Of a stretch of 64,000 bases of DNA, positions 27,465-38,005 are shown one piece after another. The position numbers and the translations under genes are program-made. Within the stretch, counting starts at the first letter, position 1. Each line of letters opens with the position of its first letter. Origin of the DNA: Escherichia phage vB_EcoM-S1P5QW; the sequence record OL956808.1, one strand, 5' to 3'. The notes under the pieces are model-generated. The model had not been told where the DNA came from. It saw nothing but the letters and a program-made list of their open reading frames with translations, and did no database searches.

Positions 27465-27548
27465 CAAAAATTTTTCACAAAGTTGTTTACAAGCATAAAG
27501 CTTTATGGTACTATACAACTATCAACTGATACGGATTTGGAGAATAAA
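27465..27548 (+). repeat. promoter/stem-loop cassette (PeSL-like) copy
   Basis: TTTTTCACAAAGTTGTTTACA...TATGGTACTATACAACTATCAACTG shared with cassettes at 12500, 28920, 54297. Confidence 0.6.
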
Positions 27549-28921: not shown

Positions 28922-28981
28922 TTGTTTACAAGACCGTTCCTCTGTGGTACTATACAACTATCAACTACGGAGGAACACAAA
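28920..28981 (+). repeat. promoter/stem-loop cassette (PeSL-like) copy
   Basis: GTTTACA...GGTACTATACAACTATCAACTACGGAGGAACACAAAATG; last 41 nt identical to 54350-54390. Confidence 0.6.
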
Positions 28982-29973: not shown

Positions 29974-30861
29974 ATGTCAGTAGTAATTAATAATGTCAAT
30001 GCAGTAATTAAATCTTTAGTTAATAAAAAATTGAATGAATGGACTGTACTTCGTCGTGGAGAGCCAGATAAATTTTTTCATAGATTTAACCCAACTTTGG
30101 ATTTGAATGTTATTGACAGAGATGTTCATGCTGAAATTTTAGATAAATTTAAAGTTGATATTGGGTTTGGATTAGATAAACATTTACAACGAACAAACGG
30201 GTCTGGAATGGGTTTATCTAATCGCATCATGAAAGCCCTTAATAAAATTGGAGCGTTGTCTCGTATTAACGCGAGTGAAATTCTTCGCAATTATAATAAA
30301 GGATATGACCTTTATGGTAGACTAATGCCGAAATTGTCATTCGATCAAATGATTGCGGATTTGTGGGAAAATCAACGACGATTATTAGCATTAGGCGCTC
30401 GATTAGCTAAAGGTCTAGATAAACAAATGATTTTTAAGACCAATAATACAGAAGACCTTAAATGCTTTAAATTTAGTATTCGCGGCGATGATTATTATAT
30501 CAGAGCTCGCTCTACAGATTATGTTAATATGGGGCATCATCTCTGTTTAGCTTTTGAAGTTTTAAAAGAAGCTGGAACGTTAGAATATTCATCTGGTGCT
30601 AAATGCCCGATTGGTTCAAATTGCATTTTAATTTATCGCCCGGATGAATCCAGTTTAACTAAATTTCCTACAAAACCTGTACCAGTTCGTAGTAACGAAA
30701 AACATTCTGAACAAATTGATTATTTTAATAAGCAAATTGAAGAGCTAAATATTTCTATTCAACAATATGACGATGAAATTTTCAGACTATCTGGACTGAG
30801 TAGTAAAGCTAAATCTGAACGTGAAAAATTAATTAAAATTGTTGATTTACTTAAATCTTAA
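29974..30861 (+). CDS. tandem-family protein 1 (N-terminal globular domain plus C-terminal coiled coil)
   Basis: 295 aa from ATG 29974 (RBS GAGTGAGGAA); C-terminal heptad-rich tail. Confidence 0.55.
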   Translation: MSVVINNVNAVIKSLVNKKLNEWTVLRRGEPDKFFHRFNPTLDLNVIDRDVHAEILDKFKVDIGFGLDKHLQRTNGSGMGLSNRIMKALNKIGALSRINASEILRNYNKGYDLYGRLMPKLSFDQMIADLWENQRRLLALGARLAKGLDKQMIFKTNNTEDLKCFKFSIRGDDYYIRARSTDYVNMGHHLCLAFEVLKEAGTLEYSSGAKCPIGSNCILIYRPDESSLTKFPTKPVPVRSNEKHSEQIDYFNKQIEELNISIQQYDDEIFRLSGLSSKAKSEREKLIKIVDLLKS

Positions 30862-30869
30862 GGAACACC

Positions 30870-31889
30870 ATGAAAACTCGTTCTCAAATTGAAGATATGG
30901 TTCGTAATGCCAGCTATACTCGTGATGTTATGACATTTTTGTGCCAAAATAATTTAGACCCTGATAAAGTTAATCGTGATATTCACTTTAAATATATGAA
31001 TAGCAGTGAATGGTTACGTCATTTTAGTAAAGCGGGGTATATTACACAAATGACTGCTCGTGAGCAGCTCACCGATTTCTGTAAAACTATTGATTATAAA
31101 AATCCTCTATTTGTTCAAGGTGTTGGTCAGAGTAAGGTCGATTTATCATCTGGATTTTTCAATCCAAATCATTATCGTATTGAATGGAGATTTATTGCTC
31201 TATTCCGTAAACAATTAAAGCAAATTTTGTCGACGGCTAGTCGATTAAAAGGTTCTGATATTAACTTAAAGAACCTGAAATTTGATGGTTATACTCTTCA
31301 GATGGAAGTAAGACCATTAAAAGAAAATAATAGAACTGCACGAATTAGCTTTAAACCTAATACAAAAAATTCTCTTTCAATTTGTGAATGTCTTAAATCA
31401 CAGCTGACAGAAGCATTTAAGTATATGGATGTTGTTGCTGCTGTTCAATCTAAGATTTCGCAGCATTTCGAACGATTTAAATTAGATACGACAACATATG
31501 AACTTGATATGATCGTTTCATTTAAATACGATTTTTTGAGAAAGGACGAAGTCCCGCAAGAGAAAAAGCAGGAAGTGCAAGATAACTTAAATTTATCTAA
31601 TTACTCATCAAACGATCCTAAATTTTGGATGTATAGTTCAGGTAATAAAGATGCATGGAAATTCAATAAAGTGAATTTTCTTCCTATTGAAAATCCGAGT
31701 CTTAAACCTGTTGAAAAATGGCACGCGGATGCGATTGAGAAGTCCCTTAAGGCAGTAGATGATGAACTCGTTAAAGCGACCAATGAAGTGTTAGAAGCTG
31801 AAAAGATGCTAGAAAAAGCACAAGAAAAAGTCAAAAATCTCACGAAGCAACGTTCTAAACTGAACAATGCACTAAATGCACTGAACTAG
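30870..31889 (+). CDS. tandem-family protein 2
   Basis: 339 aa; shares central W/R-rich motif and C-terminal coiled coil with neighbours. Confidence 0.55.
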   Translation: MKTRSQIEDMVRNASYTRDVMTFLCQNNLDPDKVNRDIHFKYMNSSEWLRHFSKAGYITQMTAREQLTDFCKTIDYKNPLFVQGVGQSKVDLSSGFFNPNHYRIEWRFIALFRKQLKQILSTASRLKGSDINLKNLKFDGYTLQMEVRPLKENNRTARISFKPNTKNSLSICECLKSQLTEAFKYMDVVAAVQSKISQHFERFKLDTTTYELDMIVSFKYDFLRKDEVPQEKKQEVQDNLNLSNYSSNDPKFWMYSSGNKDAWKFNKVNFLPIENPSLKPVEKWHADAIEKSLKAVDDELVKATNEVLEAEKMLEKAQEKVKNLTKQRSKLNNALNALN

Positions 31890-31919
31890 TTTACTTTGCC
31901 ACAAGGATGTGGTATAATG
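31889..31919 (+). promoter_or_regulatory. early promoter (GTTTAC ... TGGTATAAT)
   Basis: TAGTTTACTTTGCCACAAGGATGTGGTATAAT at the gene junction. Confidence 0.55.
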
Positions 31920-31946
31920 TTCTTACTTTCTACTGAGGAGATTAAT

Positions 31947-32948
31947 ATGACTCGTAACGAATATATCAAATCATTCAATAGCGTTATTGATGATAAAGCT
32001 ATACCGATGTTTGGTCAAAATATCGTTCTTTCTATTATCAATCAATGGCTCAATAGTGTTGATGCAAGTATTGTTTCTTCTACTAAATTTATTCATGAAA
32101 TTCGTAAAATTTCTAGCCGTGTAGATAAAGATGTTATCAAGAAAACCTTTAAAGAGTCTCGTCTTCTTTCATATTTGGTTAATCGGGATATTCTTGGTAA
32201 TTTTGGGAAAGAAATTAAACGAACTAAAGATGTAGTAGGATATAATTGGTTCGGTGATGTTAATTCTTATCATCTTAATAATAAAGAAGACCCTGAGAAT
32301 ATTTTTACTCGTCGTTGGATTAGTAATTTCAGACTTTTCAAAGGACAGATTCTAAAATCAGCTTCTAAATTATGTTATGGCGATTATCGTCAAATTCATC
32401 CTTTGGCTTCTGATATGATTATCATAAAAGAATATGAGCTTGATAAAAATAAAGTAGCTATTTTTGTGAATTATGGATTTTTTACACCAGAAACTAACCA
32501 AAAGAACATTAATAAATTTTTCTCAATTGCTAGCACTATAACTCGTCAATTAGAGACCGCATTACTTTGTATGGAAACAGTAGAAAATATTCATACATAT
32601 CCTTTTAAGAATATATGCGGTTGGGAAGGATATAAAATTGTAGTTAGTCTTCGTGAAGTGAAATGTACTTATTCACTTACTAGTAAAGAAATTTACCAAC
32701 AAAAATGTGATGAAATTGTGAATACTCCTAAAGAAGAAACTACCCTTGAGGAACTAATGGAATGTCTTGATGATTCGCCTGAACCTGTAGAAATTCGTCC
32801 AGAAGTTATTGCACTAGAAAAAGCTTATAAAGAAGTTCTAGAAATTTCTAATAAAGCGCAGAAAGAATATGAGCAGGCTAAAAGGATTTGGGAAGAATCT
32901 GTTAATCGTCTTGATCGTTTGGAACAAGCTTTACAGTTAATTAAGTAA
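31947..32948 (+). CDS. tandem-family protein 3
   Basis: 333 aa from ATG 31947 (RBS GAGGAGA). Confidence 0.55.
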   Translation: MTRNEYIKSFNSVIDDKAIPMFGQNIVLSIINQWLNSVDASIVSSTKFIHEIRKISSRVDKDVIKKTFKESRLLSYLVNRDILGNFGKEIKRTKDVVGYNWFGDVNSYHLNNKEDPENIFTRRWISNFRLFKGQILKSASKLCYGDYRQIHPLASDMIIIKEYELDKNKVAIFVNYGFFTPETNQKNINKFFSIASTITRQLETALLCMETVENIHTYPFKNICGWEGYKIVVSLREVKCTYSLTSKEIYQQKCDEIVNTPKEETTLEELMECLDDSPEPVEIRPEVIALEKAYKEVLEISNKAQKEYEQAKRIWEESVNRLDRLEQALQLIK

Positions 32949-33000
32949 TTTAAAGCCAAGGATGGCTCGGAGTATAAATCATTAACCAAGTGAGAAGAAC

Positions 33001-33927
33001 ATGAAAACTCGTAAACATTATATTGATTATTTTGACAGTCTTATTACTAAACATCGTAATTATCAGATAGGACACAGAGCAGTAATCAATAATATTCTTC
33101 GTGATTTTTTAGACTATATTGGATGGGAAAACCATATTTGTAAAGATACACAAAATGCGTATTCACATTCTCTTGGTTCTTTGCTCGAGTGGTTCAAACG
33201 TTCCAGATTACTATCTTCTGTGATAGCTGTTAATAATGTTAAAAAATTTATGTATCCAAGCTACATTGAGACTAATGTATCAAATGCTAATGTTGTTACA
33301 TTTAATATTATTAATGACGTGAAAAGAACTTATTTAGAAGAATGGTTTTCTAAAAATAGTAAAGAAAAATTTGCCAGTGAGTTTTCACACGAATTTAATA
33401 ATAATGTGAATATGCTTTTTAAGCATTCTCGTAGACTGTTTTGTCATGGCGATGATCGTACTATTAATGTAAATGTAAAAGATTGGGTTACGGCTAAATT
33501 CATTCCATCATCACAGAATGGACCATTTGAATTGTCAATTATTGTTTGTGCTCCGCATGAAATATATAAAAATCTTCCATATATGAAACCATGTGAAGCT
33601 AATAAACATAATAAAACGATTCGTTCTTTGACTTATAATCTTCGTACGTTATTGTCTAAAATGGACGTAGTTGAATCCTTTGATGATAATACGAATTATG
33701 GTCTTTCACTGTTTGAAACTAAAGTTGTTATTAAGTTAAAGGACCCTAATAAATTTAAACCTACGCCAAAGCCCAATCATGGGAATGATACTATGAAAGA
33801 AGAACGCGAATATCTCAGTGCCCGTTTGGTTGAAGTTGAAAAACAGATTGAAGAGCATACTAAAGTTATTAAGGCTTTAACCGCCAAAGCAAATGGTTTA
33901 CGTGATGCTATTGAGGTACTGAAATGA
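33001..33927 (+). CDS. tandem-family protein 4
   Basis: 308 aa; N-terminus MKTRKHYIDYF parallels MKTRSQIEDMV of protein 2; C-terminal coiled coil. Confidence 0.55.
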   Translation: MKTRKHYIDYFDSLITKHRNYQIGHRAVINNILRDFLDYIGWENHICKDTQNAYSHSLGSLLEWFKRSRLLSSVIAVNNVKKFMYPSYIETNVSNANVVTFNIINDVKRTYLEEWFSKNSKEKFASEFSHEFNNNVNMLFKHSRRLFCHGDDRTINVNVKDWVTAKFIPSSQNGPFELSIIVCAPHEIYKNLPYMKPCEANKHNKTIRSLTYNLRTLLSKMDVVESFDDNTNYGLSLFETKVVIKLKDPNKFKPTPKPNHGNDTMKEEREYLSARLVEVEKQIEEHTKVIKALTAKANGLRDAIEVLK

Positions 33928-34220
33928 AAAAGCGTTTATTAGAAGATATTGCCGAAGCTTCAGATTTTCCTGAATGGACTCCATGCGCTGGGTTTGATAA
34001 AGGACTGCTAGTTACTGACGATTTAGATTTTAAACCTCCAGCATGGGATGCTATTATGGCTATGGTTGAACGACGTGAAAGAGCTTCTAAAAACGTTCCT
34101 AATTGCCCTGAGTGTGGAACTGAACAGGTGCAATTGGTCCATTGGCAGACTAATAATCTTCGTTATAAATGTCGTCATTGTAAACGCCGATTTGACCGAG
34201 AAGAAAATGACAAAGCGTAA
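33924..34220 (+). CDS. zinc-ribbon protein
   Basis: 98 aa with CPECG...CRHCKRRF. Confidence 0.5.
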
Positions 34221-34450: not shown

Positions 34451-34714
34451 ATGTTTAAAGTATATGGTTATGATAGCAACATCCATAAATGCGTGTACTG
34501 CGATAATGCAAAACGTCTTTTGACTGTGAAGAAACAGCCGTTTGAATTTATCAACATTATGCCAGAAAAAGGTGTTTTTGATGATGAGAAAATCGCTGAG
34601 CTTCTGACTAAACTAGGTCGTGATACTCAAATCGGCTTGACAATGCCTCAGGTATTTGCTCCTGATGGAAGTCATATTGGTGGATTTGACCAACTGCGAG
34701 AATACTTTAAATGA
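34451..34714 (+). CDS. nrdC: glutaredoxin (phage thioredoxin) NrdC
   Basis: 87 aa with CVYC redox motif near N-terminus; matches recalled T4 NrdC. Confidence 0.85.
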   Translation: MFKVYGYDSNIHKCVYCDNAKRLLTVKKQPFEFINIMPEKGVFDDEKIAELLTKLGRDTQIGLTMPQVFAPDGSHIGGFDQLREYFK

Positions 34715-34926
34715 TGCTCGAAGGAAATGACTATATTCATGATTATCGTGGAAGCGCGGTATATGTAGGTGATGAAGTTGCAGTTTATTATGGGTATGGA
34801 ACTTTGATGACAGCCAAGGTTATTCAAATTAAAAATAATCGTGCTAAACTCGAAGTTTATTATTCTAATGGTGAAAAGTCTATTTCTAAGTGGAAATACG
34901 GCGATTGCATGGTCAAACTGGGGTAA
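34711..34926 (+). CDS. hypothetical protein
   Basis: 71 aa. Confidence 0.45.
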   Translation: MMLEGNDYIHDYRGSAVYVGDEVAVYYGYGTLMTAKVIQIKNNRAKLEVYYSNGEKSISKWKYGDCMVKLG

Positions 34927-35717: not shown

Positions 35718-36191
35718 ATGTTATTGACTGGCAAATTATATAAAGAAGAAAAACAGAAATTTTATGATGCACAAAACGGTAAATGCTTAATTTGCCAACG
35801 AGAACTAAATCCTGATGTTCAAGCTAATCACCTCGACCATGACCATGAATTAAATGGACCAAAAGCAGGAAAGGTACGTGGATTGCTTTGTAATCTCTGC
35901 AATGCCGCAGAAGGTCAAATGAAGCACAAATTTAATCGTTCTGGCTTAAAGGGACAAGGTGTTGATTATCTTGAATGGTTAGAAAATTTACTTACTTATT
36001 TAAAATCCGATTACACCCAAAATAATATTCACCCTAACTTTGTTGGAGATAAAACAAAGGAATTTTCTCGTTTAGGAAAAGAGGAAATGATGGCTGAGAT
36101 GCTTCAAAGAGGATTTGAATATAATGAATCTGACACCAAAACACAGTTAATAGCTTCATTTAAGAAGCAGCTTAGAAAGAGTTTAAAATGA
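35718..36191 (+). CDS. 49: recombination endonuclease VII (Holliday junction resolvase)
   Basis: 157 aa; matches recalled T4 endo VII including zinc-binding CLICQ...HDHE...CNLCN. Confidence 0.92.
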   Translation: MLLTGKLYKEEKQKFYDAQNGKCLICQRELNPDVQANHLDHDHELNGPKAGKVRGLLCNLCNAAEGQMKHKFNRSGLKGQGVDYLEWLENLLTYLKSDYTQNNIHPNFVGDKTKEFSRLGKEEMMAEMLQRGFEYNESDTKTQLIASFKKQLRKSLK

Positions 36192-38005
36192 CAATTGAAA
36201 AAGAAATTGAAGGATTGATTCATAAAACTAATAAAGACCTTTTAAACGAGAATGCTAATAAAGATTCTCGTGTTTTTCCAACTCAACGGGACCTTATGGC
36301 TGGTATTGTGTCTAAACACATTGCCAAAAATATGGTCCCGTCTTTTATTATGAAAGCGCATGAAAGCGGAATTATTCATTTCCATGATATTGATTATTCC
36401 CCTGCTCTTCCATTTACTAATTGTTGTTTAGTAGATTTAAAAGGAATGCTTGAGAACGGATTTAAGCTTGGTAATGCACAGATTGAAACTCCTAAATCAA
36501 TTGGAGTTGCTACTGCAATTATGGCACAAATTACTGCACAGGTTGCTTCCCATCAATACGGCGGAACGACTTTTGCTAATGTAGATAAAGTACTTTCTCC
36601 TTATGTTAAACGCACCTATGCAAAACATATTGAGGATGCAGAAAAATGGCAAATCGCTGATGCGTTGAATTATGCTCAATCTAAAACAGAAAAAGACGTA
36701 TACGATGCATTCCAAGCTTATGAATATGAAGTAAATACTCTCTTTAGTTCAAACGGGCAAACACCTTTTGTAACAATTACATTTGGTACAGGAACTGACT
36801 GGACTGAACGAATGATTCAGAAAGCAATTCTGAAAAATCGTATTAAAGGTCTCGGTCGTGATGGGATAACTCCTATTTTTCCTAAGCTTGTTATGTTCGT
36901 CGAAGAAGGCGTTAATCTTTACAAAGACGATCCGAATTACGACATTAAGCAACTTGCTTTAGAGTGTGCAAGCAAAAGGATGTATCCTGATATTATTTCA
37001 GCTAAGAATAATAAAGCTATCACTGGTTCATCTGTTCCTGTTTCTCCAATGGGTTGCCGTAGTTTCTTGAGCGTATGGAAAGATTCGACTGGTAATGAAA
37101 TTCTTGATGGACGTAATAATCTTGGTGTTGTAACACTGAATCTTCCTCGCATTGCATTAGATTCTTATATTGGAACACAATTTAACGAACAGAAATTTGT
37201 TGAATTATTCAATGAACGAATGGATTTATGTTTTGAAGCTTTGATGTGTAGAATTAGTTCCTTAAAAGGAGTTAAAGCGACTGTTGCTCCTATTCTTTAC
37301 CAAGAAGGTGCATTCGGGGTTCGTCTTAAACCTGATGACGATATAATTGAGTTATTTAAAAACGGCAGAAGTTCAGTGTCTTTAGGATACATAGGTATTC
37401 ATGAATTGAATATTCTTGTTGGTCGTGACATTGGACAAGAAATTTTAACTAAAATGAATGCTCATCTTAAACAGTGGACTGAAAGAACCGGATTTGCTTT
37501 TAGTTTATATTCGACTCCTGCTGAAAACCTTTGTTATCGCTTCTGTAAACTCGATACAGAAAAATATGGAAGCGTAAAAGATGTTACCGATAAAGGTTGG
37601 TACACTAACAGTTTCCATGTTTCAGTAGAAGAAAATATTACTCCGTTTGAAAAGATTTCTCGTGAAGCGCCATATCATTTCATTGCGACAGGTGGTCACA
37701 TTTCTTATGTTGAACTTCCTGATATGAAAAATAACTTAAAAGGTCTTGAGGCCGTGTGGGATTATGCTGCACAGCATTTAGATTATTTTGGTGTTAATAT
37801 GCCGGTAGATAAATGTTTTACATGTGGAAGTACCCATGAAATGACTCCTACTGAAAACGGATTTGTTTGTTCTATTTGTGGAGAAACTGATCCTAAAAAG
37901 ATGAACACAATAAGAAGAACATGTGGTTATTTGGGAAATCCGAACGAACGCGGATTTAATCTCGGTAAAAATAAAGAAATCATGCATAGGGTTAAACACC
38001 AATGA
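36188..38005 (+). CDS. nrdD: anaerobic ribonucleoside-triphosphate reductase NrdD (uninterrupted)
   Basis: 605 aa; C-terminal glycyl radical region and CxxC pairs (CFTCGSTHEMTPTENGFVCSICG); no intron. Confidence 0.9.
   Translation: MTIEKEIEGLIHKTNKDLLNENANKDSRVFPTQRDLMAGIVSKHIAKNMVPSFIMKAHESGIIHFHDIDYSPALPFTNCCLVDLKGMLENGFKLGNAQIETPKSIGVATAIMAQITAQVASHQYGGTTFANVDKVLSPYVKRTYAKHIEDAEKWQIADALNYAQSKTEKDVYDAFQAYEYEVNTLFSSNGQTPFVTITFGTGTDWTERMIQKAILKNRIKGLGRDGITPIFPKLVMFVEEGVNLYKDDPNYDIKQLALECASKRMYPDIISAKNNKAITGSSVPVSPMGCRSFLSVWKDSTGNEILDGRNNLGVVTLNLPRIALDSYIGTQFNEQKFVELFNERMDLCFEALMCRISSLKGVKATVAPILYQEGAFGVRLKPDDDIIELFKNGRSSVSLGYIGIHELNILVGRDIGQEILTKMNAHLKQWTERTGFAFSLYSTPAENLCYRFCKLDTEKYGSVKDVTDKGWYTNSFHVSVEENITPFEKISREAPYHFIATGGHISYVELPDMKNNLKGLEAVWDYAAQHLDYFGVNMPVDKCFTCGSTHEMTPTENGFVCSICGETDPKKMNTIRRTCGYLGNPNERGFNLGKNKEIMHRVKHQ

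Follow-up and report, generated by a model that had tools for sequence, protein, structure and literature searches.

Anciently diverged paralogs in the nrdC.6–nrdC.3 array of a T4-like phage: candidate early inhibitors of host immunity

Four consecutive genes of Escherichia phage vB_EcoM-S1P5QW (sequence record OL956808.1), nrdC.6, nrdC.5, nrdC.4 and nrdC.3, were identified in a stretch of 64,000 nucleotides, called the window below. The comparisons reported here indicate that these genes, referred to as open reading frames (ORFs) A, B, C and D, respectively, are very probably anciently diverged paralogs of one superfamily. ORF B is the ortholog of T4 nrdC.5, which has a published activity against the defence protein Dsr1, and the explanation of the whole array that we favour, with moderate confidence, is that the four paralogs are early, stoichiometric inhibitors of host immune proteins.

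The window belongs to a Tequatrovirus (T4-like) genome: its segment 29500–34300 matches 593 phage records, the top one being phage Aplg8 (99.0%). The gene names were assigned via the annotated PP01 and T4 records. All four genes lie on the plus strand. ORF A (nrdC.6, 29974–30861) encodes 295 aa and is 96.9% identical to T4 NrdC.6 over 259 aa; ORF B (nrdC.5, 30870–31889) encodes 339 aa and is 93.8% identical to T4 NrdC.5 over 340 aa; ORF C (nrdC.4, 31947–32948) and ORF D (nrdC.3, 33001–33927) encode 333 and 308 aa, 97.3% and 96.1% identical to T4 NrdC.4 and NrdC.3, respectively. The coordinates and lengths given in a preliminary description of the array, made from the sequence without database searches, were correct. 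On the opposite strand of the array there is no competing ORF of more than 88 aa, and an Rfam scan of the region matched no family.

The preliminary description regarded the four proteins as paralogs and proposed an all-vs-all comparison. By BLASTP, only the C–D pair was supported (24% identity over 241 aa, expectation value E 0.003), together with short coiled-coil matches, and this method is therefore inadequate at such divergence. Profiles including homologs and syntenic genes from other genera were compared with hhalign, reversed and column-shuffled profiles serving as controls (E 0.056–0.77). C and D, which are sisters, aligned with a probability of 98.1% (E 6.8e-14, 228 columns), and B and C with a probability of 81.5% (E 1.1e-5, 235 columns). 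Against the merged C+D profile, B reached 89.3% (E 2.1e-6) over 177 columns confined to the globular part (B 50–235, C 66–256), and the C-family hidden Markov model matched D orthologs at E 1e-13 to 1e-17. When no intermediate sequence was included, the alignments of A with B, C or D were not significant (probability 0.8–4.8%, E 0.008–0.067, 83–91 columns). A together with a 332-aa relative from phage CC31 aligned with C+D with a probability of 79.6% and an E of 1.5e-5 over 130 core columns; this alignment pairs RIMKALNKIGALSRINASEILRNYNKG with VIKKTFKESRLLSYLVNRDILGNFGKE, and pairs the helices of the central motif described below as well. The link between A and the other proteins comes from this one intermediate sequence and from structural searches with Foldseek.

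It could be argued that A is not homologous to the others and came to resemble them in size and in its coiled-coil tail by convergence, as its direct alignments are barely better than those of the reversed controls (0.13–0.36) and its N-terminus is unlike the MKTR/MTR starts of B, C and D. We consider this very improbable: the 130 columns aligned through the intermediate are collinear, with controls at 0.1 or above, a Foldseek search of the BFVD database with the model of C retrieved NrdC.6 of phage JS10 (E 4.7e-5, probability 1.0, 342 columns), and A and C have an identical order of secondary-structure elements from the motif helices to the tail. In conclusion, profile similarity beyond the controls extends across all four proteins, a shared fold is predicted for A, C and D, and no match to a housekeeping T4 family was found. 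The neighbouring proteins NrdC.8 and NrdC.9 are unrelated to the family profiles (E 0.1–0.6); nrdC.8 was rejected as a family member on this basis, despite its helical, charged C-terminus.

These relationships join families that are kept apart in the databases. ORF B matches Pfam DUF7235 (PF23882) over its full length (1–339) with 410.9 bits, against a gathering cut-off of 30 (E 4.8e-123); D reaches 14.6 bits, in the tail only, and A and C have no match. A, C and D are thus remote paralogs of NrdC.5, outside DUF7235 proper. A falls in phrog_2257 (E 2e-152) and its homologs carry PF26899 in precomputed tables; C falls in phrog_1435 (E 1.9e-167), with homologs carrying PF26897 in the same type of tables, and D is in phrog_1435 as well (E 3.4e-100). 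PHROG 1435/PF26897 and PF26899 are listed as distinct families of unknown function, and their link with DUF7235 comes from the present analysis. A Pfam scan of all 32 members of the family alignment (alignment A4) returned scattered sub-threshold matches only. A sequence search of the PDB with the A, B and C profiles gave just a ribosomal protein (E 0.036) and designed helical repeats (about E 1e-3), which were dismissed as noise or low-complexity helix.

As the preliminary description had suggested, structures were predicted; AlphaFold2 (AF2) models were made of A and C, whose alignments were the most diverse. The model of A, the most diverged paralog (mean predicted local distance difference test, pLDDT, 79.3; predicted template modelling score, pTM, 0.67) has a helical N-terminal domain, an alpha/beta core, a disordered linker (227–241) and C-terminal helices; that of C has a pLDDT of 83.0 and a pTM of 0.68. 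Both models consist of an N-terminal helical bundle, a common series of elements, a low-confidence linker and long C-terminal helices. The common series comprises two helices (A 123–132 and 134–144; C 119–130 and 132–140), a short helix (A 147–150; C 145–148), a beta-hairpin (A 165–178; C 158–174), a long helix (A 186–199; C 185–208) and a second beta-hairpin (A 204–221; C 212–235). Besides NrdC.6 of JS10, the C model retrieved NrdC.3 of phage fPS-65 from BFVD (E 3.3e-8). The A and C models have at least eight BFVD matches in common, all uncharacterised proteins of about 300–346 aa from T4-like phages of Pectobacterium, Enterobacter, Klebsiella, Yersinia, Serratia and Acinetobacter, with template modelling (TM) scores of about 0.4–0.5 and 12–17% identity; no DUF7235 entry was present in either Foldseek list. 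A, C and D are thus predicted to share a fold, from the order of elements in the A and C models and, for D, from Foldseek. In the family plan, the N-terminal helical bundle is variable and the alpha/beta core conserved; a flexible linker and a heptad tail of about 45–50 residues follow. In the models, the core would be made of the two motif helices, a beta-hairpin, a helix and a beta-hairpin.

The core of A (residues 83–215, positions 30220–30618, plus strand) aligns with C 62–226 by hhalign and holds the helices of a central motif rich in W and R. This motif had been proposed for all four proteins from the sequence, and its occurrences in A, B and C are indeed equivalent: hhalign pairs RIEWRFIALFRKQLKQILSTASRLKGSD of B with RRWISNFRLFKGQILKSASKLCYGD of C, and LWENQRRLLALGARLAKGLDKQ of A with FRLFKGQILKSASKLCYGDYRQ of C. 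For D, the stretch first quoted, EEWFSKNSKEKF, is placed some 12 residues too far upstream; the real equivalent is SEFSHEFNNNVNMLFKHSRRLFCHGDDR in alignment A4. The N-terminal starts, also described as similar, are so in B (MKTRSQIEDMV) and D (MKTRKHYIDYF), which share MKTR, and in C (MTRNEYIKSF), which has the same pattern; that of A (MSVVINN) differs.

All four proteins terminate in a heptad-rich stretch of about 50 residues, as had been described. Over the final 49 residues of each protein, 71–93% of the a and d positions are hydrophobic in one unbroken heptad register, compared with shuffle means of 0.45–0.54 (p 0.000–0.011 across the four tails). The tail of A covers residues 242–295 (30697–30858, plus strand, as for the other tails), with AF2 helices at 242–271 and 277–294 (heptad p = 0.002). 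In B (31740–31886) the hydrophobic fraction at a and d is 0.93 (p < 0.001), and residues 286–336 have weak matches to coiled-coil Pfam families. The tail of C (residues 285–333, 32799–32945) is modelled as one 48-residue helix, 285–332 (p = 0.011), and that of D (33778–33924) has an a/d fraction of 0.79 (p = 0.003). The four tails end in the motif L-x-x-A/I-[LIV]-x-x-L-[KN], which reads L-x-x-A-I-x-x-L-K in D. From their heptad pattern and the modelled helices, the tails are predicted to form coiled coils that would act as an oligomerisation element.

The reference T4 NrdC.6 (NC_000866, 10067–10894) departs from this plan. It is annotated as 275 aa and diverges past residue 258 (…QIEELIFLFNNMMMKFSDYLD), as if frameshifted, with loss of the coiled-coil tail, whereas the window and most relatives encode 295–296 aa. 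In the T4 annotation of the HIDEN-SEQ study, nrdC.6 has 891 nt, unlike the 275-aa reference. The reference protein is either a strain difference or the product of a sequencing error; in effect, it is a natural tail-less variant.

The distribution of the family was determined by tblastn against 50,697 phage records. A matched 741 records, 501 of them at 80% identity or more; the corresponding figures are 583 and 495 for B, and 553 and 464 for C. D matched 653 records, with 139 at 80% or more, 333 at 60–80% and 181 below 60%. Nearly every Tequatrovirus carries all four genes (A 501, B 495, C 464 and D about 472 records). The comparison of copy number across T4-like genera proposed in the preliminary description gave one to four genes per genome: A-B-C-D in Tequatrovirus, A-B-C in Dhakavirus and Gaprivervirus, A-B-D in Mosigvirus, and one recognisable member each in Jiaodavirus JD18, Karamvirus CC31 and Moonvirus Moon. 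Acinetobacter phage Berthold has one syntenic gene of 335 aa (orf119) directly upstream of an nrdC-like gene, with a weak sequence link (E 0.004 to B), and in Slopekvirus Matisse no syntenic member was found downstream of nrdC.11. An exhaustive phmmer search of 1.84 billion representatives with D gave four matches. The view that D is restricted to Tequatrovirus was dropped, as the third gene of Mosigvirus APCEc01 matches the D profile (E 4.5e-152). The superfamily is restricted to T4-like phages (Straboviridae).

Orthologs from different genera are 21–51% identical, and three lineages, A, B and C/D, are older than the split between Tequatrovirus, Mosigvirus, Dhakavirus and Gaprivervirus. Of the initial idea of tandem duplicates, the paralogy is thus supported by the profiles and a recent, simple duplication is not. 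No long DNA repeats exist between the paralogs, only microhomologies of 16–23 nt at equivalent positions. Those of 19–23 nt pair 30725–30745 with 33836–33856 (tails of A and D), 31809–31831 with 32814–32836 (tails of B and C), and 30863–30881 with 32994–33012 (start regions of B and D). These microhomologies may be remnants of common ancestry, and are possible substrates for microhomology-mediated deletions of the kind described for T4.

Diversifying selection had been proposed for the array. Amino-acid identity and the ratio of nonsynonymous to synonymous substitution rates (dN/dS) were calculated gene-wide and pairwise (NG86) for six Tequatrovirus loci. Mean identities were 96.7% for A, 93.3% for B, 92.8% for C and 85.0% for D, compared with 95.5–99.6% for the flanking genes except nrdC.2, and the dN/dS ratios were 0.09, 0.16, 0.21 and 0.26, respectively, compared with 0.01–0.08 for most flanking genes; the exceptions are nrdC.7 (0.15) and nrdC.2 (0.34). 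The array therefore evolves faster than most of its neighbours (dN/dS two to five times that of the flanks) yet under purifying selection; gene-wide ratios of 0.09–0.26 are well below 1, and diversifying selection in that sense is not borne out. Within Tequatrovirus, variability is concentrated at residues about 21–60 and 181–280, and the core (about 61–180) and the extreme C-terminus are nearly invariant; in A, the entropy of core residues 81–160 is 0.01–0.04.

D is strongly dimorphic: its two alleles are about 61% identical, and the one in the window is the minority, T4-type allele (139 versus 333 records). The other allele has 78% identity with the third gene of Mosigvirus APCEc01, which suggests either exchange between genera or ancient allelic lineages. 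Two rearranged members of the family were observed. The NrdC.6 homolog of Shigella phage Sf25 (378 aa) has an internal duplication, the equivalent of A 176–258 being present twice, which points to ongoing rearrangement inside the family. A hybrid ORF of 299 aa, on a contig of 167,058 bp, fuses the equivalent of B 145–271 (95% identity) to a D-type C-terminal half, 56% identical to the D of the window, with the join at a short common NKVN/NNVN stretch. This hybrid suggests a recombination deletion between paralogs that removed nrdC.4.

The preliminary description guessed at host takeover, exclusion or anti-defence and held that no function could be assigned. For one copy the guess was right, via T4 nrdC.5, and one member of the array already had a published function. 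No gene other than nrdC.5 is known to counter Dsr1. In the study concerned, an evolved T4 deletion clone was unable to infect ECOR17 because of Dsr1, and T4 nrdC.5 provided in trans restored plating of the deletion mutant on MG1655 containing dsr1 (Srikant, Guegler, Laub, eLife 2022, PMC9391042); the published evidence is genetic only. ORF B has retained the T4 map position (order nrdC.6-nrdC.5-nrdC.4) and high identity, and is therefore the ortholog of T4 nrdC.5, with a full-length DUF7235, whereas A, C and D are remote paralogs. From this orthology, B very probably acts against Dsr1 in the present phage. By analogy with NrdC.5, we give an anti-defence role of A, C and D nearly even chances.

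Other data place the array among anti-defence genes. All four genes, nrdC.3, nrdC.4, nrdC.5 and nrdC.6, are non-essential on the laboratory host (T4 transposon HIDEN-SEQ data). Within about 2 kb downstream, in the early accessory block to which the array belongs, two other non-essential genes each inhibit one defence system, nrdC.1 inhibiting Septu (bioRxiv 10.1101/2025.11.20.689424) and gp49.2 inhibiting OLD (PMC13096335); they differ from the array proteins in being small and unrelated, and no paralogy with the array was detected. The anti-defence reading is thus supported by the published pairs nrdC.5/Dsr1, nrdC.1/Septu and 49.2/OLD. In its favour we also count, as signatures of an arms race, the raised dN/dS of the array, the two alleles of D, the clustering of variability outside the core and the range of copy numbers between genera. 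Dsr1 is a SIR2-TPR (tetratricopeptide repeat) NADase. According to a 2026 preprint (PMC12803255), the trigger of its TPR sensor, which Dsr1 has in common with Avs7, is the major capsid protein, a late product. A functional analogy, with no claim of homology, can be drawn with DSAD1. This phage protein is reported to inhibit a defence-associated sirtuin that a late structural protein would otherwise switch on. The DSAD1 target is DSR2, not Dsr1, and the triggers are the tail tube for DSR2 and the major capsid protein for Dsr1. To our knowledge, the coiled-coil tail and tandem paralog array of NrdC.3–6 have no counterpart in DSAD1.

The array genes are dispensable on laboratory hosts and seem to be transcribed early; in the mechanism that we propose, they would encode proteins that bind host immune proteins stoichiometrically. 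NrdC.5 would bind or lock Dsr1 before the late capsid trigger accumulates; direct binding of the sensor is put forward tentatively. The coiled coil would make the inhibitor oligomeric and thereby confer avidity, the variable patches (about 21–60 and about 181–280) would set target specificity, and A, C and D would act likewise on other sensors or on other Dsr1 variants. A more specific form of this mechanism, which we regard as unlikely, is that NrdC.3–6 are early mimics of a phage structural protein, derived from a tail-terminator-like fold, which oligomerise by their coiled coils and each plug the TPR-type sensor of a different receptor (Dsr1, Avs-like) before the late trigger appears. If this were true, the tandem array would amount to an evolvable 'decoy cassette' of modular design, aimed at receptors for the conserved phage proteome. 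The particular proposal of a tail-terminator decoy for Dsr1 was set aside, since the reported trigger of Dsr1 is the major capsid protein (PMC12803255), and only the broader decoy idea was retained.

Several observations weigh against inhibition of host immunity by the four paralogs. Functional data exist for NrdC.5 only, and full-text literature searches found no mechanism, binding or structure for NrdC.5 and no mention of its paralogs. PADLOC and NCBIfam returned nothing informative for the array proteins. None of A to D has a gene-wide dN/dS above 1, and the presence of the array is steadier than that of many accessory anti-defence genes. As regards the common fold, TM-scores between family members are modest (0.37–0.49, for multi-domain models), and the fold of B is deduced from profile alignment alone.

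Three other roles were considered. The four proteins could be subunits of one hetero-oligomeric complex, assembled by their similar coiled coils and acting on one common target. All four tails are heptad-periodic with the same terminal motif, they are the part of the paralogs most readily aligned (E 5e-5 for the tails of B and D), nearly all Tequatrovirus genomes have the four genes together, and these lie in one co-directional block in the window. However, several genera have a single copy, so that homo-oligomers must be functional, and the reference T4 NrdC.6 is tail-less through its frameshift. In addition, plasmid-borne nrdC.5 alone sufficed for plating on a Dsr1 host, in a mutant whose remaining paralogs are not stated in the available text (PMC9391042). 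We hold such a complex to be rather unlikely.

A role of the array in host takeover or metabolism, for example in the regulation of nucleotide metabolism, with an indirect effect of NrdC.5 on Dsr1 through altered NAD+ or nucleotide pools, is improbable in our opinion. It would fit the position of the array between nrdC/nrdD and nrdC.10/nrdC.11; Dsr1 acts through NAD+, making a metabolic bypass conceivable, and pathways of NAD+ reconstitution are known counter-defences. The label 'thioredoxin' given to array proteins in many GenBank records would point the same way, and in many of these records all genes of the nrdC.1–nrdC.11 block are so labelled, up to 8–10 genes per record. A thioredoxin identity of the four proteins was ruled out: no thioredoxin family matched them in Pfam or NCBIfam, and the models of A and C (helical bundle, alpha/beta sandwich and coiled coil) are unlike thioredoxin. 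The labels look like a misannotation spread from the gene names.

Finally, a structural role in the virion or its assembly, as relatives of tail terminators, is extremely unlikely. The tail terminator and completion proteins compared (lambda gpU 3fz2, GTA 6tba_4A, SaPI1 DUF3168 9mu2_D, T5 p142, and those of Mu and phage 812) are 4–14% identical to the NrdC proteins, with no sequence-family match, and Pfam tail families matched neither the four proteins nor, at E ≤ 5, any of the 32 sequences in alignment A4. The NrdC proteins have two parts more than tail terminators, namely the helical bundle at the N-terminus and the coiled-coil tail, and their genes, unlike tail-terminator genes, are early, non-essential and outside the structural module: the array is part of the early accessory block, between nrdC.11 and nrdC, with an early-type promoter ahead of it, and not of the late structural module. 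Any similarity to tail terminators may be generic to small alpha+beta sandwiches.

The block that contains the array has one direction and the order nrdC.11, nrdC.10, nrdC.9, nrdC.8, nrdC.7, nrdC.6–nrdC.3, nrdC.2, nrdC.1, nrdC, gene 49 and nrdD. An early-promoter-like site is present on the plus strand at 31889–31918, just 5' of nrdC.4, with GTTTAC, a 17-nt spacing, TGGTATAAT and an extended -10. It matches 10 of 12 consensus positions, with the TG, and agrees with the consensus of T4 early promoters; it is a promoter by prediction from these matches. TTG-started ORF extensions at 27483–27545, 28922–28981 and 31896–31946, 5' of nrdC.10, nrdC.8 and nrdC.4, give on translation the similar peptides MFTSIKLYGTIQLSTDTD, MFTRPFLCGTIQLSTTEEHK and MPQGCGIMFLLSTEEIN, respectively; they reflect a noncoding promoter/leader cassette of T4 early type that recurs in the block.

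Downstream of the array, nrdC.2 (33924–34220) overlaps the stop codon of nrdC.3 and has a zinc-ribbon-like CPECG…CRHC pattern. It is more variable than the array, with two allele classes that are 63–68% identical among Tequatrovirus loci. A 71-aa ORF just 3' of nrdC (34711–34926) has no tblastn match in the T4 reference locus (NC_000866), where gene 49.3 is found; its conservation across five other Tequatrovirus loci is 99%. The nrdD gene (36188–38005) is an uninterrupted ORF of 605 aa in the window, whereas the T4 reference gene is interrupted by the I-TevII intron and has mobC after it; the present phage is therefore without the I-TevII intron.

The array genes are long-annotated T4 ORFs, one of them with a published function, and the present analysis refines known biology and does not describe a new kind of system. 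We have found no earlier description of four 'unknown' families as one superfamily, of their copy-number pattern, of a scaffold/variable-patch anatomy or of a possibly tail-terminator-like core. These results nominate nrdC.6, nrdC.4 and nrdC.3 as candidate immune-evasion factors, and likewise the single-copy relatives in phages of Klebsiella, Enterobacter, Citrobacter and Acinetobacter. The conserved scaffold is separable from the two hypervariable patches (about 21–60 and 181–280), which could be swapped for specificity, and natural variants are on hand in the two D alleles (61% identical) and the tail-less T4 NrdC.6. The resemblance to tail terminators, if real, would mean that a structural phage fold has been recruited as an immune decoy.

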